DNA from: a virus
Direction: 5' to 3' (one strand)
DNA: 41,190 nucleotides
Virus record (IMG/VR): IMGVR_UViG_3300045988_109834
Location: 1-41,190 of that record
Both the position numbers and the translations under genes were made by a program. The notes under the pieces were generated by a model. It was given only the letters and a program-made list of their open reading frames with translations, ran no database searches and was not told the origin of the DNA. This document shows positions 6,458-25,484 of this stretch, piece by piece (the stretch's first letter is position 1; each line of letters begins with the position of its first letter).

Positions 6458-6519
6458 ACCAGGGTGCATGGGTGTCATAGCTCATGTGCTCTTTTGTTTT
6501 AAAACTGAAGGAGGCAGAC

Positions 6520-9500
6520 ATGGCAGATACATACAAACTTAGCAGTCTGATGGGTACCACATCCGGAATGACTTTAGTCACCAGTACTATAATGAAGAGC
6601 GGAAAGACGCAGGTCCTTGACAGCTATTATATGTATTCTAAGGTACCATATGGAAGATGGTATTATTCACAGGCACAACAATCTTTTGATAATGAAATTA
6701 CAAAAGTATCTGTTAAATATGATGGGAATATACTTTTTACATTTAGAAATGGTTCGCTGGGTGAATACGATGCATTTTATGTAATCGGGTTAACAGCAAC
6801 AGAAAAAATATACAAGCAGAGCGGTACTCTGGATACAGGCGAAAAGTTTGATAAAATTTGTGTATACGGTACCACTATCAACCTCAATCTTGCGAGTTTC
6901 CAGGTTAATGCGATATACGAAATGTTCCTTATCAGCGGAGGCAAAAAACCGCAGATCATATTTAATTTTATAAAAGCGCCAAAGGCATATTTGAGCAGAT
7001 ACGAATACCCTTTTACAAGATCAAGCAGTGATAAGAATATGACAACAAAACTTCCAGTAAAAGCGGCTCCATCAAAGATCTATCTGACCTATGCAGGCGC
7101 AGCCGATAAATGGAAAGTAACAACAGATTTATTTAGTACTGTTACCTTAGATAATCTGCTGGGGACAAACTGGTTTCTGTGTGGATCGTACGATTACTCT
7201 GTAACAGTAAAAGACAGCAGCCTCTTTGATTTCTTCAAGATAAATAACCAAGCCTTATCCCAAATAGTAGGATACGGAAAAGGCAGGGTTATATTACAGA
7301 GTTCAGGTAATATAATCTGCGTATGGGGAACTACGAATAACGGTACATATTCTTCTTATTACGCAGAATACATGAGAAATGTACCGGAGCTGACACTGGC
7401 AGATGGTTCAAAGTTCTTCAAAATGCGTGGAAGAATGAGAGTAAATTCAGGTAGTAAAACCCCATTAATTTATGAAATGTATCTCCTGAACAATCAGAAG
7501 ATTCTCATTTATATCGCTGGGATTCCTGATGATGACACAAAGGCAACTGGAGAAAACTATGTCAATCTGTTTGGTGTAAATACTTCTTTGGGAGAGGTGA
7601 CGGCAGGAGAAAAAATCTGGCTGTATCTGGATGATGCTGGTACTTCTTATGCAATGAAGACAGGAAATGATTCTGAAGTTTCAAAGATAGAGATTCTTAC
7701 CCTGCCGACAGAGAATACATTTTACCTCGGAAGCAAACTGAATCTGGATGGATTGACAGTGCGCGCAACATTTGCTGATGGAACTACTTTTGATATTCTC
7801 AAATGGAATGAAATAAATGTTGCCTACACGAACGAACTGGGAAATCAGGCAGTAACTGTAATGTTTAGAGGGAAAACGGCTACATTTCAGACAGAATGCC
7901 TGGAGGACAAAGTTGCATCAATAGACTTCACAATCAGCCAGGATCACTATATGATCGGAGAATCCCTGGGATACATCCGAGTAACAGCAACAAGACTTTC
8001 AGGAAAGACAGAATCCGTCAGCACAGGTGATTACACAATTTCCGGATATGACCCGAATACGCAGGGAACACAGACTATCACAGTTGCTTATGAGGGATTG
8101 ACAGCGACCAAAGAGATTCTGGTTGATTCACCTGAAACAGCAGTGCTGACAGTTGTGAATGATTCAAGTGAACCTTTTTTAATCAATTTTGATACGTTCG
8201 AGTCAATGAATGTAGTGGCAACTCTTACATATAGCGATGGACAGACAGCCAACATTTTACCGTCTTATTCTGGATACGATAATGAAGCAGCCGGAGAGAA
8301 GATTATTTCTGTTTCATACCGTGGTTTATCTGCAACCTACACGGTACAGGTGGTAGAAGAAATTACACGTCAGGTAAGTGACAACATTACTATGACCCTA
8401 AATGGGTTAACCGGAAAAGCAGTAGTAAGCGGATCTGGTGAGATACCGTCAGACGCTGGAATGTTCTCAAACTCACATGAAAGCGACTGGCATGGTTATG
8501 GATATAAAACAGCAGTTAAAACTATTGAAATAGCAGACGGAATTACATCAGTATGCGGATTTGATTATTGTAGTAATCTTACATCCATTCATTTGCCAGA
8601 AAGTCTTAGTAAAGTAGGATATGATGCTTTCTATCGATGCTCAAATCTGACAGAAGTAACACTTCCGGAAAATGTTGCGACAGTAAATTCCAACGCTTTT
8701 AATTCCTGCACAAACACGGTTCTTACAATAAAGAATGCAGAGTGCCAGATATATGATGACAACTATACTCTGCAGGTGGCAAAAATAAAAGGGCACATAG
8801 ATTCAACAGCACAGAGCTATGCAGAAAAATATGCTATAGAATTCAAATCACTTGAGACAGTTACAAAGATTGAAGTAACAAAGAAACCTAAGAAAGTATA
8901 TCATACTGGAGAAACCCTAAGCAAAAACGATATTGAAGTGACAGCAACCTTTGATACGGGTGACAGCAGGACGATAAACTCATATGAACTTGAATATGAT
9001 TTTTCTTCCACAGGAGAAAAGACTGTAAAAGCGATATATGGGGATTTCTCGGATTCATTCACGGTAAATATTGTTGCGTATAATTTTCAGGAACTGATCA
9101 ATATCACAGAAGGTATGCAGGTAATTCGAAACACTAAAAATGACGACGAAATAGATACCGTAGATGGCGTTGACTGGTTTAAATTCAACAACGTGACTGC
9201 AGATAAACTGTATATCAACGGAAATAACGGGATAGGTTTCGGGGTATCATCAGAACAGTTAAAGATCTGCCGACGTGATGGAGCTATATGGAATATTTAC
9301 AGGCTGGAAACTGTATTGGACGACGGTACAAAGCTTCTTAAAATCCGGGTAGAAGGGTATACACATTATGGTGCCTCTGGAACACACGAGAGCCAGATAA
9401 AATATGAATTATTTTTATTTGGCAATGGCGATATGTACCTGAATGTGATCCAGTCCCCCGCGTCTACAAGTACCTATGCCGGTACATCCAGCCTGATATG

Positions 9501-12063
9501 CAACAATAAGACCACGAACTTGTCTCTGAATGGAGCTACACCGGATAAACCGGTACAGGTATCATTCTTGCATCAGGATGATTCAGGACTTGACTGGGAA
9601 ATAGCATACAGGGCATACAAGTTTGTAAAGCTGACAGGAATCAGTGTCACTACACTTCCGAATAAGACCAGATACAAAGTTAAAGAATCATTTGATTCCA
9701 CAGGAATGATTGTTACGGCAAACTTTGATGATGGTTCGTCAGAAACAGTGACAAAATATACTCTGACCCAGCCTGACATGACCACATCTGGCACAAAGAC
9801 TATCACCGTGACCTCTGAGAATAAAAATACCTCTTTCGATATTCTGGTTGTTGATGTAACTGAAATTATTGTAACTACGCTACCATCCAAAACAAGATAT
9901 TATGAAGATGATACTTTTTCATCGGACGGCATTGTAGTCTCACAAGTATACAGTGATGGGGCTAAAGAGAACATATCAGGCTTTACATTATCCAAACCTG
10001 ATATGTCTGCAGGCGGCGAGAAGACAGTAACCGTAACTTACAGTAAGTTTACGACTACATTTACGATCACGGTAATTGGTATATCCGGGATAGAAGTCTC
10101 CAAAATGCCGACAAAGACAGAATACTATTTAGGTGACAGCCTTGACGCGTCTGGCCTTGTAGTGGTATCCAGATATACAGATAACACCACGAAGAAACTG
10201 GAAAATTATAGTATATCCAAGCTTGACAGCTCTTCAGTTGGTGAGAAAACAATTACAGTAACTTATAAAACGCATACAGTGTCTTTTAAGGTAAACGTAT
10301 ACAAGGCAAGTGGCATCAGAATCTCCCATTTTCCCGCTAAGACGTTCTATAAGATCGGGGAGTCTCTGGATCTGTCGGGAATGTCTGTAAATCTGATCAG
10401 AAATGATGGTTCGGAAAAAGCGATCACAGATTATAGCGTATCCGGATTCGACAGCTCAAAAGTCGGAACCGAGACCATAACTGTATCTTGTAACATGATG
10501 GTTAATGGTACGAACACCTTTATAGGTTCCGACAGCTTTCAAATTAAAGTAACAAACGATGGTAAAAACCCATTTGACAGCAGCACAGGCAGAGGCGATA
10601 CAGGAGAAACTGAGGAAAATACAGAGCCAGTGTACGTAACAGTCCATTGGATAGATGGGGAGTTCGAGGATCTGACCCATGAAAATGGTGGTATCAAGGC
10701 AAATACGTTTGTTCTTCAGGAGTCTATCTGTTCTGAGCAGTACTTTATCTTTGGTGGCTGCATCTCCAACCAAGTGTCATTTGAAACAGGACACAAACAG
10801 TTCTGGGGGACAGATGAAGACTCATACCCGTCCGGCAGAATTGAGGTGTATCTGGAATGCAATAAAACACAGATCAAGGTATTCACAGGCAGGATTGCAA
10901 GTGCAGAGAGGACTTCTATTTATTCGACAAGGAAGATTGTAGCCTACGACTATCTGTATGATCTCAGAAACACAGATATTGCAAGATGGTACAAGAGCCA
11001 GATTGCCGATAAGAAGAAAAAACTTACACAGAAACAGTTCCGCGATATGTTGTTTAAATTCTTAGGCATTGAACAAATATCTACAAAGCTGCACTGGGAT
11101 GATGCTTATGTGCCATATACAAACAATGCGAATGAAATAAATGCGGTTAATGTTATAAAAGACCTGTGCCTTCAGAACGACCGCTTTGGATGGATGAATA
11201 GGGACGGCAAGTTTGAATACCTAAAACTTCGCCAAAACAGTCAGGAAACAGGCGAAACTACTTCAGGAAAGAAGATTTATAAATATTATGATAATGCAGA
11301 GGTCCATCTTGATACGTTCAAAAGCTTTTGGGCGAAAGAGGGAAGAATCTGGTTTCCGCATACGATTCTCACAGATCCAGATCCTAATAGAGCGTTTGGA
11401 TTTACGCAGGGCGAACCAACTGCACAGGAAGCGTATGAAAACAATGTCTTCTATAACCGTAACAGCTTTTTTGTGGGTAATGAGGACTGGATGGATTATG
11501 TATGGAACGCGGACGAATATGGTGGAATCAGCAGAGAAAAGCCGATTATCAACATCTGTTATGGTACTTTTGTAAATCAGGACTTGAGAAAATATTATCG
11601 AGCACAAGCCTACACAGTGGAGGTTATCGGAAATCCTCTTAACACTGTTGGGCAGACCGTAGAGCTGCGCGACACGAAGCAGATGGAAGATGGCACAGAA
11701 TTAGAGTGGTATGTACATTCTTATGTCATGAGTAGGACTTTGAAGCTTGGAAACAGCCAGTTGATTGATACTTACAGTGCAAATAATGCACCTTTTAACA
11801 GTAACAGCCGACAGCTTGGAAAAGATACACCTGAGATATCCGCGACCGTAAACCGCACCCGATCAGAAATGCCAGTGGTAAGCTATGGATTCTCGGATGG
11901 TACGAGCGATTTCACCCCGGCTGCTGTTTCTGCTTCTGGAAACACTACAAAAAAGACAACATTACGTTGTATGAAGCGCATCAAAAAAGAAGATTATGAT
12001 AAGCTTCCTGCAGCAATTCGTACCAGGAATGACACTATTTTCATGACATACAAGGAGAGTTAA
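6520..12063 (+). CDS. Giant tail/baseplate protein with Ig-like repeats, a BspA-type leucine-rich-repeat segment and a C-terminal Tal-like tail domain
   Basis: 1847 aa from the ATG at 6520 (GAAGGAGG SD). Ig-like units of the type KIEILTLPTENTFYLGSKLNLDGLTV recur at least 8 times. The LRR segment reads ITSVCGFDYCSNLTSIHLPESLSKVGYDAFYRCSNLTEVTLPENV. The gene lies after Dit. Confidence 0.8.
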   Translation: MADTYKLSSLMGTTSGMTLVTSTIMKSGKTQVLDSYYMYSKVPYGRWYYSQAQQSFDNEITKVSVKYDGNILFTFRNGSLGEYDAFYVIGLTATEKIYKQSGTLDTGEKFDKICVYGTTINLNLASFQVNAIYEMFLISGGKKPQIIFNFIKAPKAYLSRYEYPFTRSSSDKNMTTKLPVKAAPSKIYLTYAGAADKWKVTTDLFSTVTLDNLLGTNWFLCGSYDYSVTVKDSSLFDFFKINNQALSQIVGYGKGRVILQSSGNIICVWGTTNNGTYSSYYAEYMRNVPELTLADGSKFFKMRGRMRVNSGSKTPLIYEMYLLNNQKILIYIAGIPDDDTKATGENYVNLFGVNTSLGEVTAGEKIWLYLDDAGTSYAMKTGNDSEVSKIEILTLPTENTFYLGSKLNLDGLTVRATFADGTTFDILKWNEINVAYTNELGNQAVTVMFRGKTATFQTECLEDKVASIDFTISQDHYMIGESLGYIRVTATRLSGKTESVSTGDYTISGYDPNTQGTQTITVAYEGLTATKEILVDSPETAVLTVVNDSSEPFLINFDTFESMNVVATLTYSDGQTANILPSYSGYDNEAAGEKIISVSYRGLSATYTVQVVEEITRQVSDNITMTLNGLTGKAVVSGSGEIPSDAGMFSNSHESDWHGYGYKTAVKTIEIADGITSVCGFDYCSNLTSIHLPESLSKVGYDAFYRCSNLTEVTLPENVATVNSNAFNSCTNTVLTIKNAECQIYDDNYTLQVAKIKGHIDSTAQSYAEKYAIEFKSLETVTKIEVTKKPKKVYHTGETLSKNDIEVTATFDTGDSRTINSYELEYDFSSTGEKTVKAIYGDFSDSFTVNIVAYNFQELINITEGMQVIRNTKNDDEIDTVDGVDWFKFNNVTADKLYINGNNGIGFGVSSEQLKICRRDGAIWNIYRLETVLDDGTKLLKIRVEGYTHYGASGTHESQIKYELFLFGNGDMYLNVIQSPASTSTYAGTSSLICNNKTTNLSLNGATPDKPVQVSFLHQDDSGLDWEIAYRAYKFVKLTGISVTTLPNKTRYKVKESFDSTGMIVTANFDDGSSETVTKYTLTQPDMTTSGTKTITVTSENKNTSFDILVVDVTEIIVTTLPSKTRYYEDDTFSSDGIVVSQVYSDGAKENISGFTLSKPDMSAGGEKTVTVTYSKFTTTFTITVIGISGIEVSKMPTKTEYYLGDSLDASGLVVVSRYTDNTTKKLENYSISKLDSSSVGEKTITVTYKTHTVSFKVNVYKASGIRISHFPAKTFYKIGESLDLSGMSVNLIRNDGSEKAITDYSVSGFDSSKVGTETITVSCNMMVNGTNTFIGSDSFQIKVTNDGKNPFDSSTGRGDTGETEENTEPVYVTVHWIDGEFEDLTHENGGIKANTFVLQESICSEQYFIFGGCISNQVSFETGHKQFWGTDEDSYPSGRIEVYLECNKTQIKVFTGRIASAERTSIYSTRKIVAYDYLYDLRNTDIARWYKSQIADKKKKLTQKQFRDMLFKFLGIEQISTKLHWDDAYVPYTNNANEINAVNVIKDLCLQNDRFGWMNRDGKFEYLKLRQNSQETGETTSGKKIYKYYDNAEVHLDTFKSFWAKEGRIWFPHTILTDPDPNRAFGFTQGEPTAQEAYENNVFYNRNSFFVGNEDWMDYVWNADEYGGISREKPIINICYGTFVNQDLRKYYRAQAYTVEVIGNPLNTVGQTVELRDTKQMEDGTELEWYVHSYVMSRTLKLGNSQLIDTYSANNAPFNSNSRQLGKDTPEISATVNRTRSEMPVVSYGFSDGTSDFTPAAVSASGNTTKKTTLRCMKRIKKEDYDKLPAAIRTRNDTIFMTYKES
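9631..10530 (+). repeat. Four in-frame tandem 225-nt (75-aa) Ig-like domain repeats inside the giant tail gene
   Basis: Units start at 9631, 9856, 10081 and 10306 (LTGISVTTLPNKTRY / VTEIIVTTLPSKTRY / ISGIEVSKMPTKTEY / ASGIRISHFPAKTFY). Confidence 0.85.
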
Positions 12064-12768
12064 ATGGCAATAGAATATAAAGCTTTTTCCGGTGGAAGAG
12101 AAATAGATGGTTTTTATTCTGGTGGAAAAGAGATACAGGAAATATGGGGCGGTGACACACTTTTGTGGAGAAAGAAAGAGGATGTAGTTGAAGAAGATCC
12201 ATGGTGGTTTGACTATGATCTGTATGCACGGTTTAAAAACCCTGCACCGTACAAGAGAGCAGAAGTTTGCTTCTCAGTACAAGCTAAATATGGAGTTCAA
12301 TATGTCAATTTAGCATATGGATTTTGTGTGCGGGTGGTAAATGGAATATATATGGTTACAGCGGCGGCTGTGGACAATTCCAAGATGGAAGGGAGATATT
12401 ACAATGGTGATACATCAATGGTTCCAACATGGAGACTTACAACGGATACTGGCGATACGGAATTTGCGTATTCTGATTCTGCAAATTGGGATGACACCTT
12501 AAAAAAATACAGCCTTTATAATACAAATCCGGAAAACGTACCGTTTTACTCATGGGGCGGAGCATTTGAAGAGAAACCGTTTTGGTTTAAGGATAGTGAC
12601 AAACAGGCAGGGGTGCTTGATGTAACTTCTCCTAAAATAGCGGGCAGTGATGAACCAGAAGGTAAATATTATTATTATCCATCCAGACTTTTCAGCAGCG
12701 TGGGTGCTATGAAAAAATGGTTACTTGACATGTATAATAATCCGGATAAATGGTGGACAGATAAATAG
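12064..12768 (+). CDS. Tail-associated hypothetical protein
   Basis: 234-aa ORF. Its start abuts the stop of the giant tail gene (TAAATG) and has an AAGGAG SD. Confidence 0.6.
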   Translation: MAIEYKAFSGGREIDGFYSGGKEIQEIWGGDTLLWRKKEDVVEEDPWWFDYDLYARFKNPAPYKRAEVCFSVQAKYGVQYVNLAYGFCVRVVNGIYMVTAAAVDNSKMEGRYYNGDTSMVPTWRLTTDTGDTEFAYSDSANWDDTLKKYSLYNTNPENVPFYSWGGAFEEKPFWFKDSDKQAGVLDVTSPKIAGSDEPEGKYYYYPSRLFSSVGAMKKWLLDMYNNPDKWWTDK

Positions 12769-12807
12769 TGATATATCAGGAGGAAAACAGAACATGAACA
12801 TTCGAGC

Positions 12808-12830
12808 AGAGCCGTAACAGGCTCTTTTAT
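12808..12830 (+). terminator. Weak intrinsic terminator-like hairpin
   Basis: AGAGCC-GTAACA-GGCTCT followed by TTTT. Confidence 0.35.
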
Positions 12831-12837
12831 TATACGC

Positions 12838-12856
12838 AAATTGCGCCCGCGCAAAT
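12838..12856. promoter_or_regulatory. GC-core palindrome, copy 1 (AAATTGCGCCCGCGCAAAT)
   Basis: Near-palindrome related to the 19-mer at 17578 and 39115. It sits just upstream of the SD of the 12876 gene. Confidence 0.5.
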
Positions 12857-12875
12857 AAAAAAGGAGGAAAGCAGA

Positions 12876-13124
12876 ATGAAATCAAACGGATCAAGCTTCG
12901 TAGACGGACAGGCTTACAAAGACGGTGAAGAGATATGGGATCTCGGAAGCCTGGTATGTACAAATGTCCCGCTCCGGGGAGTAAGGAACTATGAGGGGTT
13001 AAGTAAGGACGTAGATAAGCTTCCCCACTACAAAGACCTGTCAACCGGAAGCTCCTGCCTGATGCTGGATACAGGGGACTTCTACAAATACGAGAAGAGT
13101 ACCGATAAGTGGTACAAACTGTGA
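12876..13124 (+). CDS. Hypothetical small tail-fibre-module protein
   Basis: 82-aa ORF with an AAAAGGAGG SD. Confidence 0.6.
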   Translation: MKSNGSSFVDGQAYKDGEEIWDLGSLVCTNVPLRGVRNYEGLSKDVDKLPHYKDLSTGSSCLMLDTGDFYKYEKSTDKWYKL

Positions 13125-13140
13125 GAGGAGATGATGAAAC

Positions 13141-13917
13141 TTGAGAGCAGATGAGGTATATGCAATTCTTAAAGGGAAACTTATTAAACTTACAGAAGAC
13201 ATAAAATCAATGGGTGACTGGGAACCCATACAGCACAAGGGAACCGTCCAGACTGCAGATGATCTTCCGGCTGATGCAAAAGAAGGCTGGATGTATAATA
13301 TTGCCACAGACTCTATCTATGGAGCAGCTGGCATGAATGTAGTAAAGACTGCCGATGGATGGGATCCAATGGGACCGATCATTAACATGGCTCCGTATTT
13401 AATGAAGAAAGAAGCGGAAGAACTCTACCAACCGAAGGGAAATTACCCGACAAAAGAAGAGGTTAAAGAAGGATATCAGCCAAAAGGCAATTACCTTACA
13501 AACATTCCACAGGCAGCAGGAAATGTTCTTGGCGGTATCAAAGCTGAGCCAAAAACAGAAAAAGAGGTGGTTCCGGCAAAGATCGATCCTGACACCGGAA
13601 AGATGTACGTCCCAGAACTTCCTGGCTCAGAAGACCTGTCAAAAGAAGATACAACGCAGCAGATTCTCGAAAAATTACAAGAAGTGATCCCTCTTATCAA
13701 TCAGATTGCACAGAACGGAACCGCAGGGTCTGTAAATGGCTTTTCTTTTGTCCATGGCGATGATGGAAGTGTAATGATAACCTATACACCGGATGGAGCA
13801 TCGGAAGCAGAAGTTGCTGTATTCCCTCGGGAAACAACACAGAAGAAGATCTCTAAGGCGACAAAAGAGATTGCGGACAGTTTAAAGATCATAGCAGGAA
13901 AGGAAGATAAAGCATGA
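13141..13917 (+). CDS. Tail fibre-like protein
   Basis: 258-aa ORF with a TTG start 10 nt after GAGGAG. It contains an internal YQPKGNY(P/L)T duplication and is ATGA-coupled to the DGR target gene. Confidence 0.55.
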   Translation: MRADEVYAILKGKLIKLTEDIKSMGDWEPIQHKGTVQTADDLPADAKEGWMYNIATDSIYGAAGMNVVKTADGWDPMGPIINMAPYLMKKEAEELYQPKGNYPTKEEVKEGYQPKGNYLTNIPQAAGNVLGGIKAEPKTEKEVVPAKIDPDTGKMYVPELPGSEDLSKEDTTQQILEKLQEVIPLINQIAQNGTAGSVNGFSFVHGDDGSVMITYTPDGASEAEVAVFPRETTQKKISKATKEIADSLKIIAGKEDKA

Positions 13918-15134
13918 GTTTAGATATCATGAAAGAAAGCACACAGCAGGAGATCCTCAGCAATATGCAGCTGATATCTGCATTAACAGCCTCAATCGCA
14001 GGCGCGACTCCTGGAAGTGTGACAGTTGAAAGATGGAGCGACGTAGGAGATATCATTGTAACTGGTCTTGGAAAGAAGATATTTGCAATCGGAGATAAGT
14101 TTACAGATACATGGAAAGATACAGCTGATAACAGATCATATGAATTTCCGTGGAGATGCAACTGTTTCAGAAACGTAGAACTGGAAGACGGCAGTACAGT
14201 TCCTGGAATGTTATTACAGATGGCATATGCAACCCCATTCGCTGTGCAGTTCTCAAACGCAAGAGCATTCTTGCGTTGTCCGAATGGTTTAGCGGCTGGT
14301 ACCTACAATGTCACATTTGGAGATACCTGGGGAAGCAAAGACGCAAAAGCAAACACCACATGGCAGTTTACCCTTACAAAAGCAGTCCCGACAGGCGGAC
14401 GTTTGGCTGGATTCATCCAGATGCCGGACGTGGCAGCAACAAGCTGGAAAGTTACAGCTTACGCCGCAGATGGAATCACAAAGCTTGAAACAGTTCCCGT
14501 AACAAGCGGATCAGAAGGGACCTCACTTGGAACAATGAATCTTTCTTCCAGAAACGGAGATTTGAACTCCATGCAGGAAACAGGATATGGATGGAACAGA
14601 TGGAAGACATCTGCATACCGACAGTACCTGAACAGTGACAAGCCAAAAGGACAGTGGTGGACACCGCAGGACGAATGGGACGTAGCACCAGATCAGTTGG
14701 CTACAAAGGACGGTTTCCTGCGGGGTATGCCGAAAGAGCTTCTTGACCAGATCCAGCCAGTAAAAGTGATCACATATACGAATACGGTAAATGATGGCGG
14801 AAATGCTGATGTGACTTATGACAAAGTATTCCTCCCGGCACTTGGTGAAATGTATTATGAACCTCAGATTGATGGAGAGGGAGAACCGCATGACTACTGG
14901 AAAGAACGCAGCGGATCAGCAACAAAACTGAAACAGTACACAGCATATCCGAACATGATCACATATGCAGTTGAGAACCATACATCAGCTCAGATTGTGC
15001 GCTTGCGCTCGGCGTTTCGTGGCGTTGCGCTTTACGCCTGGGTTGTCAACTCAGATGGCGGCGCCGGCTACTACTACGCGTTCAGCGCGTATCGTTCCTC
15101 CCCGCTTGTCGCAATCTGCAGAAAATCAGCATAA
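13914..15134 (+). CDS. DGR target protein: tail-fibre/receptor-binding protein with a C-terminal variable region (C-type-lectin-fold-like)
   Basis: 406-aa ORF whose last 48 codons contain the VR. C-terminus: QIVRLRSAFRGVALYAWVVNSDGGAGYYYAFSAYRSSPLV. Confidence 0.88.
   Translation: MSLDIMKESTQQEILSNMQLISALTASIAGATPGSVTVERWSDVGDIIVTGLGKKIFAIGDKFTDTWKDTADNRSYEFPWRCNCFRNVELEDGSTVPGMLLQMAYATPFAVQFSNARAFLRCPNGLAAGTYNVTFGDTWGSKDAKANTTWQFTLTKAVPTGGRLAGFIQMPDVAATSWKVTAYAADGITKLETVPVTSGSEGTSLGTMNLSSRNGDLNSMQETGYGWNRWKTSAYRQYLNSDKPKGQWWTPQDEWDVAPDQLATKDGFLRGMPKELLDQIQPVKVITYTNTVNDGGNADVTYDKVFLPALGEMYYEPQIDGEGEPHDYWKERSGSATKLKQYTAYPNMITYAVENHTSAQIVRLRSAFRGVALYAWVVNSDGGAGYYYAFSAYRSSPLVAICRKSA
14987..15110 (+). 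repeat. DGR variable repeat (VR)
   Basis: 124 bp aligning gap-free to 15647-15770 (offset 660). There are 19 mismatches, all opposite TR adenines. Confidence 0.93.
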
Positions 15135-15159
15135 TCCCCGTACCCACGGATACGGGGAT
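15134..15159 (+). promoter_or_regulatory. Hairpin downstream of VR (candidate DGR target-recognition cruciform)
   Basis: ATCCCCGTA (15134-15142), 8-nt loop, TACGGGGAT (15151-15159). It begins at the last base of the target stop codon, 24 nt after the VR end. Confidence 0.55.
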
Positions 15160-15173
15160 AGAAAAGAGGAAAC

Positions 15174-15626
15174 ATGTCAGTAAATAAAAGTGATAGGAAT
15201 GTAGCGGACACTCCACAGAACAGACATCTGGATGCAGCATGGAAAGCCAGAGGGCTTTCACTGCATACAATGAAAATCTGCAAAAACAAGAATGTCTTTC
15301 TTCCGGAATATCAGTCCGCACTCACAGACGATATCATCAGACTCTCAAAGGACATCTATTTAAAAGTCCGCAGGTCAAACAACATCAGAATGGATGTCAA
15401 AGACCCGGCAAGAAAAGCGAAGAACTGGGAAGTAAGAAGTAATCTGCAGGTATCAGCAATACTGGATTGCAACGATATGCTCTATCTGATAGAACTTGCC
15501 AGAGCATTGTTTCATCTGAAAGGGAAGAAAGCGGAATACTGGTCTGATCTTACATTGGAAACGAGAGAATACATCAAAAGATGGCATGAATCCGATGTAG
15601 ACAGATATAAAACATACACAAGATAA
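15174..15626 (+). CDS. avd: Accessory variability determinant (Avd)-like protein
   Basis: 150-aa basic, predicted helical ORF with an AAGAGGA SD, located between VR and TR as in BPP-1. The call is mainly positional. Confidence 0.6.
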   Translation: MSVNKSDRNVADTPQNRHLDAAWKARGLSLHTMKICKNKNVFLPEYQSALTDDIIRLSKDIYLKVRRSNNIRMDVKDPARKAKNWEVRSNLQVSAILDCNDMLYLIELARALFHLKGKKAEYWSDLTLETREYIKRWHESDVDRYKTYTR

Positions 15627-15646
15627 AATCATGGGATGTAGGCTAT

Positions 15647-15770
15647 AGCTCAGAATGTGCGCTTGCGCTCGGCGAATCGTGGCAATGCGAATAACGCCTG
15701 GAATGTCAACTCAGATGGCAACGCCAACAACAACAACGCGTTCAACGCGTATCGTTCCTCCCCGATTGTC
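15647..15770 (+). repeat. DGR template repeat (TR)
   Basis: Non-coding copy of the VR with 32 adenines and 13 in-frame AAY codons. Translated in the VR frame it reads QNVRLRSANRGNANNAWNVNSDGNANNNNAFNAYRSSPIV. Confidence 0.93.
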
Positions 15771-15926
15771 TTACATAGGGCATCATAGCTGTTACATAGT
15801 AACGGTTGTCCCGAAGGCATTAGACAAGGAGCCGAAATCCCATCCGAAAGGATAAACAATACCCGTTACGATGCACGTGACTCCACACGGAGCCTGCCAG
15901 TGCTATCACGTGGCGGGACAAGATAA
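15647..15926 (+). ncRNA. Putative DGR template RNA (TR plus 156-nt spacer upstream of the RT)
   Basis: By analogy with the BPP-1 TR-Sp RNA. The spacer contains CACGTGA...TCACGTG pairing. Transcript ends are unknown. Confidence 0.45.
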
Positions 15927-17078
15927 ATGAAAGAATATATAACAGGGTTTGACCAGCTTTATGGATCAGCGTGGAAATGCCAGGCAAATGTAACCTGGAA
16001 GCCTTCGGTAAAGTCATTCATGTTAAATGCCGAAGAGAATATCCATAGAATGCACAAACAGACTCAAAGCGGTACCTGGAAACATGGAAAGCCAAGAAAG
16101 AAGATCATCACATACCCGAAGAAAAGGGAAGCCCTGAGCATCCCGTACAAGGACAGAGTGTATCAGCGCAGCATTAATGATAACTCCCTGTATCCGCAGA
16201 TGACAAGAAGCTTCATATATGCGAACTGCGCCTGCCAGACAGGAAAAGGTACAGATTTTGCCCGAAAACTGGTTAAAAAGTATATGTGGAATTATTTCTG
16301 CAAATATGGGAACCAGGGATACGTAATGCAGATAGATATTCATGGCTATTATCAAAACATGAAGCATGAGGAAGTAAGTAACTGGTTTGAAGCAAAAGTA
16401 GATCCAGATACTTACGAAATGTCAATGAGCGTACTGGATACACAGTACAGTGGAGACACCGGATATAATCCCGGAAGCCAGATGGTGCAGATTGCGGGCA
16501 TATCCTTATTAGATCCGTTAGATCACCATATCAAAGAACAACTCCATGCGCACTATTACATCCGGTATCAGGATGATTTCTGGATTCTTTGGTATGACTA
16601 CGAAGAATTGAAAAGTTGGTTTGAAATTATAAAGATAAAACTAAAAGAAAAGGGATTCGAAGCAAATGAGAAGAAATCCCGCATAACCCCATTGTCGAAA
16701 GGATTCCGGTTTTTGGGATTTGATTACAGAATGACGGAAACCGGAAAGATAATCATGACTCTGAACTCTCAAAACACAAAACATGAGAGAAAGAAGCTTG
16801 TCCGGATGACTCACAAAGTAGCCAAAGGTGAAATGGATGATTCCACAGTGGATGAAAACTTTAGATGCTGGAAGAATAACGCCAGCAAAGGGAATTCAGA
16901 GAAATTGATAAAACGAACAGAGAGATACTTGGAACGTCTCAGAAAGGAGCATTATGCAGTACCAGAAAAAAACATTAAGCCCACAGGAAGAGGCAGAAAA
17001 CGAGATCCTGAAAGCGGCTGTTGCAAGCCAGCAGGAAGAACTGACAAAAACAAAACTTCTTCTTCAGTATGTAGCTGA
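15927..17078 (+). CDS. DGR reverse transcriptase
   Basis: 383 aa with RT motifs KREALSIPYKDRVYQ, QIDIHGYYQNM, PGSQMVQIAG, YIRYQDD and FRFLGF. No maturase/endonuclease or intron features. Confidence 0.92.
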   Translation: MKEYITGFDQLYGSAWKCQANVTWKPSVKSFMLNAEENIHRMHKQTQSGTWKHGKPRKKIITYPKKREALSIPYKDRVYQRSINDNSLYPQMTRSFIYANCACQTGKGTDFARKLVKKYMWNYFCKYGNQGYVMQIDIHGYYQNMKHEEVSNWFEAKVDPDTYEMSMSVLDTQYSGDTGYNPGSQMVQIAGISLLDPLDHHIKEQLHAHYYIRYQDDFWILWYDYEELKSWFEIIKIKLKEKGFEANEKKSRITPLSKGFRFLGFDYRMTETGKIIMTLNSQNTKHERKKLVRMTHKVAKGEMDDSTVDENFRCWKNNASKGNSEKLIKRTERYLERLRKEHYAVPEKNIKPTGRGRKRDPESGCCKPAGRTDKNKTSSSVCS

Positions 17079-17151
17079 TATGACAGATGTTTACATTCCG
17101 GAAGAATCCGAAGAAACAGAGGAGGGAACAACAGATGAGCAAAATGTATAA
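16954..17151 (+). CDS. Hypothetical acidic coiled-coil protein
   Basis: 65-aa ORF with an AAGGAG SD. It overlaps the last 125 nt of the RT ORF in another frame, and its composition looks more protein-like than the RT tail. Confidence 0.4.
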   Translation: MQYQKKTLSPQEEAENEILKAAVASQQEELTKTKLLLQYVADMTDVYIPEESEETEEGTTDEQNV

Positions 17152-17275
17152 GACCTTGTTGCAGCTTAAAAAAATCTACAAAAGAGAAGCCTGGCTGAAA
17201 ATGGTAGAGCAGGCAAAAGAAAAGAATCGGATCACCGAAGAGGAATACAAGAAACTCACAGAGGAAGAATCATGA
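17135..17275 (+). CDS. xkdX: XkdX-family small protein
   Basis: 46 aa, MSKMYKTLLQLKKIYKREAWLKMVEQAKEKNRITEEEYKKLTEEES. The ITEEEYKKLT C-terminus is typical of PBSX XkdX. GGAGGG SD. Confidence 0.6.
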   Translation: MSKMYKTLLQLKKIYKREAWLKMVEQAKEKNRITEEEYKKLTEEES

Positions 17276-17373
17276 GCATTTTAACAGGCATATTAACATA
17301 CCTTGCAGGAGGAATCACAGGAGTCTTGCTTATGTGTATCCTCAAAGCAAGTAGAGAGGACGACGATAAATGA
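17272..17373 (+). CDS. Small membrane peptide (33 aa)
   Basis: MSILTGILTYLAGGITGVLLMCILKASREDDDK, with one TM helix. It is ATGA-coupled at both ends. Confidence 0.5.
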   Translation: MSILTGILTYLAGGITGVLLMCILKASREDDDK

Positions 17374-17579
17374 CAAAACTTCAGATTATCTCAAAACTCT
17401 GGTCCATCATCTTCGATCTGATTCTGATCATAAAAGGAGAATCAGATAAAACTCTCGAACAGATAGAGAAAGACGTAGACCTGGCAGAATACCACTGCCG
17501 GAGATACACCGATACAGACGATGATGAACTTCCAGAGAATATAAGAGCAGAGCCATTAAAAGACATATTGCCGTTTTAA
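17370..17579 (+). CDS. Hypothetical protein
   Basis: 69-aa ORF, ATGA-coupled, with a hydrophobic N-terminus and an acidic C-terminus. Confidence 0.55.
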   Translation: MTKLQIISKLWSIIFDLILIIKGESDKTLEQIEKDVDLAEYHCRRYTDTDDDELPENIRAEPLKDILPF

Positions 17580-17597
17580 AATTGCGCCGGCGCAATT
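17578..17597. promoter_or_regulatory. GC-core palindrome, copy 2 (AAAATTGCGCCGGCGCAATT)
   Basis: 18-bp perfect palindrome at 17580-17597. The 19-mer AAAATTGCGCCGGCGCAAT is identical to 39115-39133. Confidence 0.6.
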
Positions 17598-17617
17598 GCC
17601 GGAGAAAGAGTGAAACA

Positions 17618-17920
17618 GTGAAAGAAATACTCATACAGACATATACTATTGTATTACCGGTGCTTTTGGGCTATATCGTCTGGCTCTTAAAGAATCAGAA
17701 GAAAGACCGGGACGCAAACAGCAAAGGCACCATGCTCCTGCTCCGTACACAGCTGATTGAGTATCATGCGAAGTACATGAAACTGGGAAATATCCCTTCC
17801 TATGCCTACCAGAACTTCTGCGAAATGTATGAAGCCTATCATGCGTTGGGCGGGAATGGCATGGCAACCAAAATGAAACAGGAAATTGAAGAATTGCATA
17901 TTAAAAGAAAAGGAGAGTAA
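17618..17920 (+). CDS. Membrane-anchored lysis-module protein
   Basis: 100 aa from GTG 17618 (GGAGAAAGAG SD), with an N-terminal TM helix. The MRRRN N-terminus in the ORF track is read-through of the palindrome. Confidence 0.5.
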   Translation: MKEILIQTYTIVLPVLLGYIVWLLKNQKKDRDANSKGTMLLLRTQLIEYHAKYMKLGNIPSYAYQNFCEMYEAYHALGGNGMATKMKQEIEELHIKRKGE

Positions 17921-17922
17921 CT

Positions 17923-18255
17923 ATGGACGTAAATACAATGATGCAGTATGCAACTTATGGTCTGGCACTGATCGGAGGCCTTGCCTTCCTGGTGTCAATT
18001 ATCGTGCAGGTAATCAAAGAACTTCCAGGATTGAAGAACATTCCGACAAGTATTGTAGCTCTTGCGGCATCCCTGGTCCTGTGTCCGGTAGCATTAACAG
18101 TCTTATGTACATACATGAAGATTGTGATTACATGGTACTATGTATTTGCTTCTTTCCTTGCAGCATTCGTAGTTTACTTAGTAGCAACAGGCGGCTGGGA
18201 AAAGATAAAAGAGATCTGGGACAGAACAAAGTATAAAGATTCAGAGGGCGAGTAA
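17923..18255 (+). CDS. Holin
   Basis: 110 aa with three hydrophobic helices and a charged C-terminal tail (KYKDSEGE), directly upstream of the endolysin. Confidence 0.75.
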   Translation: MDVNTMMQYATYGLALIGGLAFLVSIIVQVIKELPGLKNIPTSIVALAASLVLCPVALTVLCTYMKIVITWYYVFASFLAAFVVYLVATGGWEKIKEIWDRTKYKDSEGE

Positions 18256-18278
18256 TCGTCCTCTTTTAGGAGAATACA

Positions 18279-19664
18279 ATGCAGAAAAATAATGTAGAGG
18301 TTCTGAGAAAAATCCTATATGCAGTAGAATCCGGAAATCAGATTTACGGAGAACAGGACTACTCGGCTTTCTCAGAAACCGGTGAGAACTGTGATAATGA
18401 GAAAGCAATCACAATCGGTGCCGGTCAGTGGTACGCGGATGAAGCGAAAGAACTGCTGCACAGGATCCAGAGAGGGAATCCAAAATTATTCAAGGATATG
18501 GATAATGAGAATCTGGAAGCTGATCTGCTTAAAAAGAGTTGGGACACATATACAGTGAGCAGGGAATCCGCAAAAGGCAGGCTTATCATTGATATTATCA
18601 GCACTGACCTCGGGAAGAAATGCCAGGATGATTATATGGAAGATCAGATTATCGACTACTCGGCATCTATTGAAAAAACATACGGAGAAATGCCAGATGA
18701 TGCAATGATGGAGTGCATCAATATTTTTCATCAGGGCGGTAACTGTGCATTGAAAAGAATTCTGTCAAAGACAGCAAGACCATATACAGCAGACAAGATT
18801 TATGTAACACTGTGCCGGGATCCGGCAGACCCGACACCGAACCAAGTAGGCGACTATGAAGGCAGACAGAAAGCGGTGATCAGCATGATTCGGAAGTATG
18901 CTGTGACTGCGGAAAGAAAGGAAGATGCGGCAATGACAAAGACAGAAAAAGCAATCAAACAAATGGAATCGTGGGCGGCAGACAACTCCCATGGGTATGA
19001 TCAGATATACAGATGGGGAGAAAAAGGAGATTATGACTGTAGCTCTGCTGTGATCAGCGCATGGCAGGCAGCAGGCGTTCCAGTCAAGACAAAAGGAGCA
19101 ACTTACACAGGCGATATGAAAGCAGTGTTCCTTTCCTGCGGCTTCGCTGATGTGACCAGCAAGGTTAACCGGTCGACAGGTTCAGGACTCCAGAGAGGTG
19201 ATGTGCTACTTAACGAGGCACATCATGTTGCAATGTACTGCGGGAATGGAAAAGAAGTAGAAGCATCTATAAACGAAAAAGGTACTGCGACAGGCGGACA
19301 ACCGGGAGATCAGACTGGAAAAGAATTCTTAGTCAGAAGTTATCGAAACTATCCGTGGGATTGCGTCCTGCGGTATCAGGAAAGCAACTCTGCCAGCGCT
19401 ACAACCACCGAAAAAGTAGCATATGTAGCCAGAATGAGTAAGGATACTCAAACCTATATTGATGCAGGAAAAACGAAATCTACGCTCTGGCCAAAGCTCA
19501 AGAAAAACACTCTGGTGGATGTGATCAGAGGAGCAACTATCAAAGATTCTGCCGGAAAGAAATTCTACCTTGTCCGACTCGGACATCCGACAGAAGGATT
19601 CGTCAGAGAATATGTAGCAGCAGGTAGTTTCAAGAAATTACAAAAGAACAAATCAAAAGTTTAA
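18279..19664 (+). CDS. Multidomain endolysin (lysozyme-like N-domain, NlpC/P60-type cysteine peptidase, SH3b-like C-domain)
   Basis: 461 aa. Peptidase signature: GDYDCSSAVISAW ... GDVLLNEAHHVAMY ... GGQPGDQTGKE. It follows the holin and has a strong terminator downstream. Confidence 0.8.
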   Translation: MQKNNVEVLRKILYAVESGNQIYGEQDYSAFSETGENCDNEKAITIGAGQWYADEAKELLHRIQRGNPKLFKDMDNENLEADLLKKSWDTYTVSRESAKGRLIIDIISTDLGKKCQDDYMEDQIIDYSASIEKTYGEMPDDAMMECINIFHQGGNCALKRILSKTARPYTADKIYVTLCRDPADPTPNQVGDYEGRQKAVISMIRKYAVTAERKEDAAMTKTEKAIKQMESWAADNSHGYDQIYRWGEKGDYDCSSAVISAWQAAGVPVKTKGATYTGDMKAVFLSCGFADVTSKVNRSTGSGLQRGDVLLNEAHHVAMYCGNGKEVEASINEKGTATGGQPGDQTGKEFLVRSYRNYPWDCVLRYQESNSASATTTEKVAYVARMSKDTQTYIDAGKTKSTLWPKLKKNTLVDVIRGATIKDSAGKKFYLVRLGHPTEGFVREYVAAGSFKKLQKNKSKV

Positions 19665-20055: not shown

Positions 20056-21120
20056 TTATTTTGTAATTTTCTCCATCTCATTTTTCAGATCCTCCAGAGT
20101 ACGGTGGGTATACACTTTTTCTGTGATATCCCGCACTTCATGTCCAACAATCATTTTCAATATATACTCATTCATATTGACATCTTTTGCCTTTGTGATA
20201 AAGGTGTGCCTGGTATCATGTGGCTTATGATCCATTCCAAGCCTGGACATCACCTTTCTGAAACGTCCACGATATTTGTCATAAGTCAGGTGGGTACCTT
20301 GCTGACCGTCCGGATCATTGAAAAGGTATTCGCTTCCCATCCTGGTAGCCAGATTATAATTTTTGATGACCAATTCGGTCACTAATGGATGGATCGGAAC
20401 AACTCGGTTCTTTCCTGCGTCCGTTTTCAATCCTCCGGTGTAGGTCATGTTTTCGAGATTAATATCTGCAATCTTAAGCACAGCCAGCTCCTGCGGACGC
20501 CATCCAGAATAAATACCGATCAGGATCATATCAACAAAAGGAATTTCGAGATGCTGCCAGAGAGATTCGATTTCCTGATCAGAAAAAGGAACGCGGACGA
20601 TCTGAGGGGCAGCACGCTTAACTCCGTCACAGAGCTGCGCATAATCCTTATCAACAATCTCATGTTTCATAGCGTATTTATACATAAGATTAAATACACT
20701 CTTGATCCTGCCTTTTGTGCTGTCACCCACATCTGCATTTTTTATTGTCTGCTCCAGGTGCTCCACACGGATATCCTTCATTCGCATATCATACAGAGGC
20801 TTGCAGTATCGATACGCAGCAGTGACTGTTCTGGTACTGGAAGCACCGATTGTAGGAAAATAGCTGGCAGTCCATTTCTCATAAACATCTGAGAAAGTAA
20901 GAGTTTCAGCGTCCAGATCGTAAGGATTTTCGTTATAATGCGTCAGAGCAGTAATAGCTTCCTGCTTGGTAGCAAAATATCCGATCGTCTTTCGAACCTG
21001 CTTTGTTTTTTGACCTTCCTCATCAATGTTCCATTTCATTGTCTTAACTGCCATCCAGGGTCTTCGCCTAAAACGGTCTTTTAATTTATACACAGATCCA
21101 AAACCATTTGGTAGTTTCAT
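20056..21120 (-). CDS. int: Tyrosine site-specific integrase with an N-terminal AP2-like arm-binding domain
   Basis: 354 aa. C-terminal catalytic signature: HDTRHTF ... VGHEV ... VYTHRT. N-terminus: GSVYKLKDRFRRRPWMAV. Confidence 0.93.
   Translation of the reverse strand: MKLPNGFGSVYKLKDRFRRRPWMAVKTMKWNIDEEGQKTKQVRKTIGYFATKQEAITALTHYNENPYDLDAETLTFSDVYEKWTASYFPTIGASSTRTVTAAYRYCKPLYDMRMKDIRVEHLEQTIKNADVGDSTKGRIKSVFNLMYKYAMKHEIVDKDYAQLCDGVKRAAPQIVRVPFSDQEIESLWQHLEIPFVDMILIGIYSGWRPQELAVLKIADINLENMTYTGGLKTDAGKNRVVPIHPLVTELVIKNYNLATRMGSEYLFNDPDGQQGTHLTYDKYRGRFRKVMSRLGMDHKPHDTRHTFITKAKDVNMNEYILKMIVGHEVRDITEKVYTHRTLEDLKNEMEKITK
20367..20381. repeat. TGACCAATTCGGTCA, a degenerate copy of the 15-bp TGACCGAWTCGGTCA palindrome
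   Basis: The 20-nt string ATGACCAATTCGGTCACTAA matches 29773-29792 at 19 of 20 positions. It lies inside int. Confidence 0.45.
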
Positions 21121-24734: not shown

Positions 24735-25484
24735 ATGAGGTGCGGATATATAAGAGAAACATGGGAGTGTGGAGAGACTTTAGAGATAGAGGAGAAGCAC
24801 ACCGGTAGATATGGAGCCAGGGGACAGAAGAGGGAGAAGAAGAAAGAACCCACCCCAGAGGACATAGCGAGGCAGAACCAGTGGAAGAGAGTCAGAGATC
24901 TCCGGAGACTAACGAAGTGGAACTTTAACACAGGAGATTGTTGGATCACCCTCACATATCAGAAAGATTTAAGACCAAGCTGGGAAGAAATGATGAAGCA
25001 CATGGAGAAATTCATCAGACAGCTTCGAACCGCTTACAAAAAATATGGATGGACTCTGAAATATATCTGGAGACCACAGATAGGAAAAAGAGGTGCAATT
25101 CATATTCATATTCTCGTTTCCGCATACTCAAATACAGAGACCAGAACAGAGAAACTGGTTAGAGAATTCTGGCCGCATGGAAACCCGAACATGAAGGTAG
25201 TCTATGATCTGAAAACTGGAGACCTGGCAGAGTACATAGCAACCCCACTGCAGGAATGGGAACCGGAAGAAGCGAAGAACTTCCACCCTTCCAGAAATCT
25301 GATCAGAAAAGAACCAGAGAAGGAAACAGTAAGAAGACGAAGTCTGATAGATAAGCAAGGTAGGGTTCGAGAACCGAAACCTCCAAAAGGTTACTACATA
25401 GACGAGAATTCTATTGAAAAGGGAATTAATCCGGTCACTGGATATGCGTACAGAAGATACATTCTTGTGAAGATGCAGATTTGA
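24735..25484 (+). CDS. HUH-type rolling-circle replication initiator-like protein
   Basis: 249 aa from the ATG at 24735 (GAGGTGG SD). Motif I CWITLTY, motif II (HUH) AIHIHILV, motif III tyrosine LAEYIATP. Confidence 0.55.
   Translation: MRCGYIRETWECGETLEIEEKHTGRYGARGQKREKKKEPTPEDIARQNQWKRVRDLRRLTKWNFNTGDCWITLTYQKDLRPSWEEMMKHMEKFIRQLRTAYKKYGWTLKYIWRPQIGKRGAIHIHILVSAYSNTETRTEKLVREFWPHGNPNMKVVYDLKTGDLAEYIATPLQEWEPEEAKNFHPSRNLIRKEPEKETVRRRSLIDKQGRVREPKPPKGYYIDENSIEKGINPVTGYAYRRYILVKMQI

Follow-up and report, generated by a model that had tools for sequence, protein, structure and literature searches.

Organization of the locus

The IMG/VR virus record IMGVR_UViG_3300045988_109834 comprises 41,190 nucleotides (nt), all of which were analyzed and are referred to here as the window. 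The subject of this study is a putative diversity-generating retroelement (DGR) located next to its tail genes. In order along the plus strand, the locus consists of a target gene (13914–15134), a hairpin, a small open reading frame (ORF) for a basic accessory protein (15174–15626), a template repeat (TR, 15647–15770), a spacer of 156 nt and a gene for a reverse transcriptase (RT, 15927–17078). The original prediction, drawn from the sequence alone, had listed the same elements in the same places, and all of them are present. It had also set the cassette between tail genes and an XkdX/holin/lysin block, which the gene assignments bear out: the cassette is flanked by tail genes on one side and by an XkdX-like ORF, small ORFs at the holin position and a lysin of the NlpC/P60 type on the other.

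Template and variable repeats

The variable repeat (VR) is located near the end of the target gene (14987–15110, plus strand), where it covers codons 358–399 of 406. Both the VR and the TR, which is on the same strand, measure 124 nt; the TR contains 32 adenines and 13 AAY codons. The repeat was recovered by an independent repeat search, and the two copies were then formally aligned without gaps. They are identical at 105 of 124 positions. At each of the 19 mismatches an adenine of the TR faces a different base in the VR, and all 19 fall on the first or second codon position of the target frame. The 92 template positions occupied by other bases are identical without exception. The probability that all 19 mismatches would fall on the 32 adenines by chance is negligible (hypergeometric P = 3e-14). 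When read in the VR frame, 30 of the 32 TR adenines (30 of the 31 in-frame) are at codon positions 1 or 2. The 13 AAY codons in the target frame represent the classic design, in which the encoded residues can be randomized without giving rise to stop codons. The VR/TR relationship noticed in the sequence thus survives formal alignment. A search of both strands of the window did not find a second VR.

Related loci and mutagenic homing

Relatives of the RT are encoded by 372 IMG/VR contigs. RT identity is 53–92% for the 80 best IMG/VR loci and the closest matches in genomes. TR/VR pairs were sought in the relatives with a detector that penalizes all mismatches equally. In 71 of 82 loci, a VR is located about 610–690 nt upstream of a TR, which in turn is 140–233 nt upstream of the RT, and the mismatches between the two are almost all at adenines. 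Most of the 11 loci where no pair was detected lack the upstream sequence.

The ten closest homologs of the target protein (82–95% identical) differ from it at 10–18 of the 42 VR residues, compared with 9–57 of the 364 residues elsewhere. The VR differences among close homologs are mostly at codons for which the TR encodes asparagine. Three loci (L002, L146 and L147) carry cassettes that are similar to that of the window at the nucleotide level (91–95% identity in the part of the target gene outside the VR, 93–95% in the RT gene). Each has a TR that differs from the window TR by one single-nucleotide polymorphism (SNP), and this SNP is mirrored in the VR of the same locus, while the mismatches between its own TR and VR are all at template adenines. 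A comparison of the VRs with each other reveals 15–22 differences at adenine positions and one elsewhere, which is the copied SNP. The presence of TR SNPs in the cognate VRs, together with the near-confinement of VR differences to adenines, indicates unidirectional transfer from TR to VR accompanied by adenine mutagenesis. On this comparative evidence of mutagenic homing in its relatives, the DGR has apparently been active recently.

The same three cassettes sit among tail-fibre genes and integration modules that differ from those in the corresponding region of the window (12064–19664). In L002, a serine recombinase takes the place of the tyrosine integrase, while in L146 and L147 an integrase lies within about 700 nt after the cassette, replacing the holin and lysin genes. 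The cassette, as judged by these comparisons, is modular.

The closest match in genome collections, with an RT identity of 92%, is a 40.6-kb contig (CAKRPJ010000022) from a metagenome-assembled genome (MAG) of an uncultured Lachnospiraceae bacterium, and the wider RT clade occurs mostly in gut Clostridia. The nearest RT from a deposited phage genome, that of an unannotated faecal phage, has 44.5% identity. Named phages with related RTs, at 24–32% identity, include nd12, nd4, several Faecalibacterium phages and the Roseburia phage Shimadzu. A nucleotide search with the cassette against deposited phage genomes (INPHARED) returned only a 108-nt match and no close relative.

The reverse transcriptase

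The RT gene (15927–17078, plus strand) encodes 383 residues that match RVT_1, the only Pfam family detected, as well as phrog_1423 (E 2e-63). The conserved core extends from residue 1 to about residue 345 (to about position 16960), and the remaining ~40 codons overrun the next gene. The catalytic residues D137 and, within the YQDD motif, D216 and D217 are intact. All of the RT peptide motifs quoted in the original prediction are found in the translation.

We searched PDB sequences with a profile built from 51 RT sequences. The best match to a solved structure is 8ub7_A (residues 10–322 of 328, E 3e-20), which can be identified as bRT, the RT of phage BPP-1, because the aligned part of the chain matches BPP-1 Brt in every residue and the chain is partnered by Avd. 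Direct alignment of the profile with BPP-1 Brt by hhalign gave a probability of 99.1% over residues 7–323 of 328, at ~21% identity. The equivalents of bRT R74, G182 and Q187, as well as the catalytic aspartates, are conserved in the clade. These alignments support the placement of the enzyme with DGR RTs, as a full-length homolog of bRT whose match takes in the N-terminal extension and the thumb.

We consider it extremely improbable that the enzyme is instead a group II intron maturase, or a retron, abortive-infection (Abi) or defence-associated RT (DRT) that merely adjoins a duplicated gene fragment. Its best NCBIfam match is TIGR04416, PADLOC lists several DRT models besides a generic one, and the group II maturase 6me0 is only about 9 bits below bRT in the profile search. 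However, TIGR04416 reaches 77 of the 300 bits set as its cutoff, and Drt3a (41 against 200), Drt5 (31 against 550) and the retron St85 model (24 against 235) are also far short of theirs; the best of the PADLOC matches is the generic 'RT' model. Group II maturases match the profile over the palm and fingers only, whereas bRT matches from end to end. At gathering thresholds, Rfam detects neither a group II intron nor a retron msr-msd RNA in the window. Furthermore, the adjoining 124-nt repeat is strictly A-specific (at the P-value given above) and recurs in the 71 of 82 clade loci, and the nearest named phage RTs include those of the DGR phages nd12, nd4, and the Faecalibacterium phages Lelie, Pioen and FP_Toutatis. 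A grouping with group II, retron or Abi RTs, which would have contradicted the original prediction, was not seen in NCBIfam, PADLOC, the PDB profile search or Rfam. The group II, retron and DRT identities were rejected, since the models lie far below their cutoffs, no cognate RNA was detected and the match to bRT is end to end.

The RT deviates from the prototype in one motif. The heptapeptide PGSQMVQ (residues 182–188, window positions 16470–16490) faces IGSLTSQ of bRT in three independent alignments and is invariant in the 51 aligned members of the clade; the same peptide pattern retrieves 405 stretches in IMG/VR. The signature motif of DGR RTs is [I/V/L]GxxxSQ, and I181 of bRT has been reported to promote adenine mutagenesis (PMC7826257). 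In the clade the glycine and the final glutamine are kept, a proline replaces I/V/L and a valine replaces the serine. The motif is also unlike the QGxxxSP of group II and retroviral RTs. The original prediction had read the SQ within PGSQMVQ as typical of DGR RTs. This reading was mistaken: in the alignments to bRT, these two residues are out of register with the SQ of the signature, from which the clade deviates. A-specific mutagenesis is nevertheless evident across the clade despite the proline at the position of bRT I181.

The accessory protein

The accessory gene (15174–15626, plus strand) encodes a basic protein of 150 residues (pI 9.6) with four predicted helices. An AlphaFold2 (AF2) model of the protein consists of four long helices, with a predicted local distance difference test score (pLDDT) of 82. 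The top PDB match of this model by Foldseek is 2gsc (probability 1.0, TM-score 0.53–0.65 on the search target, E 0.05), a representative of PF05635 for which sequence and structural alignments suggest homology to the BPP-1 accessory protein bAvd, 4DWL (PMC10053308). The structure of bAvd itself is outside the top 50 PDB fold matches. Among fold matches in BFVD with probability 1.0, an 'Avd-like protein' ranks first and an uncharacterized protein second. No Foldseek match other than these two and 2gsc reaches this probability.

At the sequence level, phrog_3206 ('Avd protein of DGR') matches the accessory protein with an E-value of 0.009. The accessory family has 938 representatives at 50% identity, and among 96 diverse relatives the Pfam families most often matched are the two models for Avd and the 23S rRNA IVP four-helix bundles, PF05635 (9 proteins, best E 5e-5) and PF22296 (4 proteins, best E 3e-5). 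Homologs at 62–67% identity have been named 'Avd-like' by their depositors. By its position, charge and modeled fold, the protein is probably a remote relative of Avd that fills the same role, but sequence does not establish the homology. The original assignment as Avd stands as far as a small, basic, helical protein with an Avd-like fold and position is concerned; it does not extend to sequence, where the protein stays below Pfam thresholds.

The target protein

The target gene (13914–15134, plus strand) encodes 406 residues, in which a helix at the N-terminus precedes a beta-rich middle part, with a DUF6273 domain towards the C-terminus. The Pfam match to DUF6273 (PF19789) spans residues 218–384, with 42.8 bits against a cutoff of 23.5 (E 6.7e-11), and the same domain is matched in all 44 target homologs. 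The VR, at residues 358–399, thus corresponds to the C-terminal end of this domain. The target also matches phrog_19280 (E 5e-34). DUF6273 has been described as a C-type-lectin-like target domain of DGRs with the VR at its C-terminus (PMC11792537, PMC10743442, bioRxiv 2024.10.15.618418). From the Pfam membership and the published DUF6273 models, we infer a C-type lectin fold for the VR domain.

The original prediction had described the locus as the mtd-avd-TR-brt layout of BPP-1. The order of target, accessory gene, TR and RT agrees with this description, but the target is a DUF6273 protein and has no sequence match to Mtd. An hhalign comparison of the target profile with Mtd gave a probability of 0.1, and the Pfam families Mtd_N and mtd_2nd, which are both found in Mtd, are both missing from the window target. 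A search of PDB sequences with the target profile gave no match. We also built an AF2 model of the target from an alignment of 44 sequences, all at least 61% identical; the model is of low confidence, and a Foldseek search with it returned only noise.

The start of the target gene overlaps the stop codon of the upstream gene (13141–13917) in the sequence ATGA at 13914–13917. The products of the two genes have a helical segment in common: residues 163–198 of the upstream protein and residues 2–36 of the target share 44% identity across 36 residues (pairwise E 7e-4), with a weaker second copy of the segment at residues 228–253 of the upstream protein. Similarity of this kind may reflect an attachment or assembly module shared by the two proteins, or a recombination joint. 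In L002, L146 and L147, the position of the upstream gene is occupied by a different protein of 157–159 residues.

Its last position in the tail module, the ATGA coupling, the shared N-terminal helix and the literature together point to the target as the probable receptor-binding tip of the virion. Alternatively, the DGR could be real but diversify another adhesin of the virion surface, such as a decoration of the Hoc or 'tentaclin' type with mucus or another ligand as its binding partner, or else a protein that acts in the lysogen. This is unlikely, but it has some points in its favor. A further match of the DUF6273 part is phrog_10993 ('Hoc-like head decoration'), the domain occurs in tentaclins, and the target of Toutatisvirus has been annotated as Hoc-like (PMC10743442, bioRxiv 2024.10.15.618418); the lack of Mtd sequence similarity and the uninformative fold search leave room for such a protein. 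On the other hand, the target gene closes the tail module and is coupled in translation to the tail-module gene before it, with whose product the target shares the N-terminal segment, and the target does not have the Ig-like repeats that define tentaclins and Hoc. In addition, small targets with a single DUF6273 domain that adjoin the cassette have been likened to Mtd (PMC10743442, bioRxiv 2024.10.15.618418). A receptor-binding role thus remains the preferred interpretation of the target.

A second candidate adhesin or receptor-binding protein is encoded upstream of the DGR target. This tail protein of 1859 residues (6484–12063, plus strand) contains multiple Big_3 Ig-like domains and leucine-rich repeats of the BspA type (LRR_5).

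Target-site signals and the DGR RNA

The 3' end of the VR, CCCCGCTTGTC (15100–15110, plus strand), resembles an initiation of mutagenic homing (IMH) site, and its counterpart in the TR is CCCCGATTGTC. The two differ at C15105 of the VR, which faces A15765 of the TR. Among 66 distinct loci, the VR base at this position is C in 54 and T in 8; thus, a C or T opposite a TR adenine, within the context CCCCG-N-TTG, is seen in 62 of 66 loci. At the protein level, nine of the ten closest VRs have SPLV, and the TR encodes SPIV. A15765 belongs to the spacer-pairing portion of the TR, 3' of wherever initiation could plausibly occur. Since the VR base is fixed in the lineage, the 19th mismatch, C15105, is best explained as a fixed marker that distinguishes IMH from IMH*. 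Its interpretation as a mutagenized site was rejected, because C or T is fixed across loci.

A hairpin or cruciform (15134–15159, plus strand) begins at the last base of the target stop codon, 24 nt downstream of the VR. It is formed by the stem ATCCCCGTA/TACGGGGAT and the loop CCCACGGA. Its DNA fold is more stable than expected (z = -3.1), with none of 200 shuffled sequences being as stable, and it is kept in nearly all related loci with covarying stems. The 8-nt loop CCCACGGA (15143–15150) is conserved in most of the loci L002–L083, while the stems vary (ATCCCCGTA, ATCCCTGCA, TCCCCGGA, CGACGGCA and TCCGCCGA). More distant sub-clades carry other loops. The combination of a conserved loop with covarying stems suggests that the loop is recognized in a sequence-specific manner.

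The spacer (Sp; 15771–15926, plus strand) separates the TR from the RT gene by 156 nt and appears to be part of a structured non-coding RNA. To model this RNA, 25 non-redundant loci were aligned from just upstream of the TR to the start of the RT gene and examined for covariation. A long-range duplex is predicted between GGGAUGUAGGCU (15633–15644) and AGCCGAAAUCCC (15830–15841), both on the plus strand, corresponding to the avd:Sp 'cPRT Stop' duplex of BPP-1. It contains 9 pairs, with 96.9% of cells paired in the 25 loci, and 4 of the pairs have changed on both sides. A second duplex, between the 3' end of the TR (CC..UUGUC, 15762–15770) and GACAAGG (15823–15829), corresponds to the TR:Sp duplex of template and primer in BPP-1. 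This duplex encloses a stem-loop at 15789–15805 (the whole element covering 15760–15829), which is nested inside a GGG/CCC clamp (15778–15780 and 15810–15812). In the helices of the TR:Sp region, 94–99% of cells are paired, and CAAGGA is invariant; all 7 pairs of the stem-loop at 15789–15805 have compensatory changes. The long-range duplex is followed by the stem-loop AUCC-GAAA-GGAU (15842–15853), the nearly invariant AAACAA (15854–15859) and, further along the spacer, a CUCC/GGAG hairpin (15881–15892).

For the six helices as a whole, 95.1% of cells are paired, compared with 79.9% in column shuffles and 33–50% when the partners are slid by 1–3 columns, and 20 of 31 pairs have changes on both sides. 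The stem-loop at 15789–15805 lies immediately downstream of the TR, at the place described for the Avd-binding stem-loop. An Avd-binding stem-loop and a cPRT Stop duplex have been predicted in 207 of 278 other DGRs (bioRxiv 10.1101/2023.10.23.563531). As its elements match those published for BPP-1, the RNA very probably works by the same type of mechanism. An Rfam scan of the window detected a single tRNA and no family for the DGR RNA.

Assignment and proposed mechanism

We conclude with high confidence that the cassette is a complete, recently active DGR of a temperate phage, probably of the siphovirus type, that infects gut Clostridia, possibly Lachnospiraceae. The A-specific mismatches, the alignment with bRT, the fold of the accessory protein, the target-site signals and the evidence of homing all agree with the complete DGR, in the order target, accessory gene, TR and RT, that had been proposed for this locus.

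Several observations count against this conclusion or parts of it. The RT does not conform to the strict signature [I/V/L]GxxxSQ and has a proline where bRT has I181. The accessory protein is itself called by neither Pfam nor NCBIfam, its sequence and profiles gave no match to PDB sequences, and an hhalign comparison of its profile with BPP-1 Avd, as a single sequence, was negative. The Foldseek E-values of its model are weak (0.02–0.05), and four-helix bundles match promiscuously. The AF2 model of the target has a pLDDT below 50 over residues 286–395, the VR domain. The assignment of the host, a gut Clostridia bacterium and possibly a member of the Lachnospiraceae, rests on one phage-sized contig binned into a Lachnospiraceae MAG. 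Lastly, the evidence of activity is comparative and concerns recent evolutionary activity rather than current activity. As for the accessory protein, BPP-1 Avd itself has no sequence match to 2gsc, and a negative result at the sequence level thus says little in a superfamily this divergent.

The comparative nature of the activity evidence also bears on whether the architecture could be real but the element an inactive relic whose VR was fixed long ago. The RT has YQDD in place of the clade consensus YMDD, as well as the proline in the signature motif, and the C-terminal read-through tail of its ORF is not under selection. Nevertheless, no ORF is disrupted, and the RT retains its catalytic aspartates. 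YQDD and the 383-residue form are also found in the closest aligned relative, P0046, and the 383-residue length in P0044–P0048, while the proline is invariant across a clade that shows A-mutagenesis everywhere. The non-adenine positions of TR and VR are identical (92 of 92), whereas the rest of the target gene differs by 5–9% between relatives, and in sister lineages the cognate VRs carry copies of TR SNPs. We therefore regard a relic as very improbable and a recently active element as the better explanation.

The elements identified here suggest the following mechanism. A transcript that runs from the 3' end of the accessory gene through the TR and the 156-nt spacer would fold into a defined RNA, in which the last bases of the TR pair with GACAAGG of the spacer to form a duplex of the template:primer type. 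The sequence just upstream of the TR would pair with AGCCGAAAUCCC, and this duplex, followed by the GAAA-capped stem-loop and the A-rich stretch, would constitute a 'stop' element. The RT, together with the basic, four-helix Avd-like protein, would self-prime on this RNA and copy the TR into cDNA, with misincorporation opposite adenines only. The cDNA would then replace the VR at the target gene's 3' end, with the direction set by the VR-specific, IMH-type end CCCCGCTTGTC (in the TR, CCCCGATTGTC) and by the hairpin 24 nt downstream. As a result, about 13–14 residues of the C-type-lectin-like DUF6273 domain would be randomized through the 13 AAY codons, without introducing stop codons, and this would change the surface with which the virion protein, whose gene closes the tail module, binds ligands. 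Both the self-priming chemistry and the complex of Avd with RT are assumed here.

Comparison with known DGRs

The DGR of BPP-1 has the same gene order and strand, and it likewise lies where the tail genes end, directly ahead of the lysis genes. The TR is 134 nt in BPP-1 and 124 nt in the window, the spacer is about 140 nt and 156 nt, respectively, and the VR is at the 3' end of the target gene in both. Mismatches at adenines only, an RT that is homologous from end to end, an IMH-type marker and a hairpin after the VR are further common features. The TR:Sp duplex, the cPRT Stop duplex, and its stem-loop and adenosines, all have equivalents in the window. The two systems differ in several respects, however. 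The RTs are only ~21% identical, with IGSLTSQ in bRT and PGSQMVQ in the window. The accessory protein has 150 residues, compared with 128 in bAvd, and no detectable sequence match to it. The window target has neither Mtd_N nor mtd_2nd, nor any match to Mtd. The hairpin that follows the VR in BPP-1 has a GAAA tetraloop, whereas the loop in the window is of 8 nt and conserved. BPP-1 is a podovirus of a Gram-negative host, while the phage described here is siphovirus-like and of gut Clostridia.

The Faecalibacterium prophages Lelie, CP11, Roos and Pioen, as well as Toutatisvirus (PMC11792537; bioRxiv 2024.10.15.618418), are also temperate phages of gut Clostridia with DUF6273 targets. Their DGRs resemble that of the window in having the VR at the C-terminus of DUF6273, the TR between the accessory gene and the RT gene, and homologous RTs. 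The RT identity to the window is only 25–30%, and several of these phages have two targets or remote VRs, in contrast to the single, adjacent VR of the window. The host of the window phage, probably a member of the Lachnospiraceae, also sets it apart from the Faecalibacterium phages.

In phages nd4 and nd12, target2 consists of one globular DUF6273 (C-lec-like) domain with short helices on either side and has been proposed to be an Mtd-like receptor-binding protein (PMC10743442). The RT of nd12 is homologous to the window RT, with 32% identity. Compared with target2, the window target has an additional beta-rich N-terminal part of ~200 residues. A tentaclin, which combines DUF6273 with Ig-like repeats and has an N-terminal VR, is not present in the window.

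The uncultured relatives in the clade (IMG/VR contigs, CAKRPJ010000022 and 'MAG TPA Caudoviricetes' entries) have the same layout and the PGSQMVQ motif. In the loci examined, they also have the same spacer RNA and hairpin loop. They differ in the flanking tail-fibre genes and integration modules.

DGRs that target DUF6273 in phages of gut Clostridia have already been published, and the window element is a further example; the result is confirmatory, and it shows that a DGR can be recognized correctly from the sequence alone. We think it doubtful that the element stands for more than this, namely for an abundant, experimentally untouched lineage of gut Clostridia phage DGRs that departs from the prototype in a PGxxxVQ motif of the RT, an Avd that is invisible to Pfam and a cassette-linked acidic ORF of 65 residues as a possible extra DGR component, with the loop CCCACGGA as a possible recognition site for homing. 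Just three features go beyond the textbook DGR: an RT motif specific to the clade, a highly divergent Avd and a small ORF linked to the cassette.

The locus adds a complete, circular 41-kb temperate phage genome with an intact cassette, from a lineage found in hundreds of gut viral contigs. It can serve as an annotated reference for this lineage, with the exact TR, VR, IMH-type marker and target-site hairpin, and with an RNA model supported by covariation. This model mirrors the elements seen by cryo-EM in BPP-1, in a system whose RT is only ~21% identical, and thus supports the published generality of the priming and stop architecture. A natural RT clade with adenine-specific mutagenesis despite a proline in place of I/V/L, and the small ORF linked to the cassette, may be of interest to specialists.

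A small ORF overlapping the 3' end of the RT gene

An acidic ORF of 65 residues (16954–17151, plus strand) overlaps the 3' end of the RT gene in another frame. The last ~40 codons of the RT gene are conserved in the three closest loci only, while 61 loci contain the small ORF. In all 45 loci with at least 60% RT identity, it directly follows the RT core, with a start no more than about 10 nt from the end of the core, and it also directly follows the core in 20 of 49 loci at 50–60% RT identity. Between the window and L002, 11 of the 12 substitutions in this ORF are at third codon positions. Since the tail is not conserved as part of the RT and the overlapping ORF is conserved, the functional RT is likely to have about 345 residues. 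Where the downstream context is different, as in L146 and L147, the small ORF is still linked to the cassette. It is omitted from the gene calls in L001–L003, and searches of NCBIfam and PHROG found no family match for it.

The phage genome

The first and last 119 nt of the window (1–119 and 41072–41190) are identical. These ends represent an assembly overlap, and the genome is thus circularly closed, with a unique length of 41,071 bp and a G+C content of 42.1%. An identical sequence, from sample SAMN02334153, is also present as ENA contig ERZ28566661 scaffold_434.

Genes were annotated from PHROG and Pfam assignments. The small and large terminases, portal, scaffold and major head protein are encoded at 33.7–41.1 kb, with the small terminase gene at 33704–34606. 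The head-tail adaptor, a tail completion protein, the tape measure (931 residues, 3213–6008) and the 1859-residue tail protein occupy 0–12 kb. The phage also encodes a lysin of the NlpC/P60 type, a tyrosine integrase and a repressor. No sheath gene was found among the PHROG and Pfam assignments. Since a tape measure is present and a sheath gene is absent, the phage is probably of the siphovirus type, as far as morphology can be read from gene content. The tRNA detected in the Rfam scan, its sole match, is a tRNA-Met with anticodon CAT (33592–33666, plus strand), located just upstream of the small terminase gene.

A ParA/CbiA-type ATPase (26493–27257, plus strand) and a protein of 709 residues with a ParB-like region (27261–29390, plus strand) are encoded next to each other. 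The tyrosine integrase gene is at 20056–21120 on the minus strand, and a protein with a REP_ORF2-G2P domain is encoded at about 24735–25484. The presence of partition genes and an integrase in one genome hints that lysogeny could be either integrated or plasmid-like.

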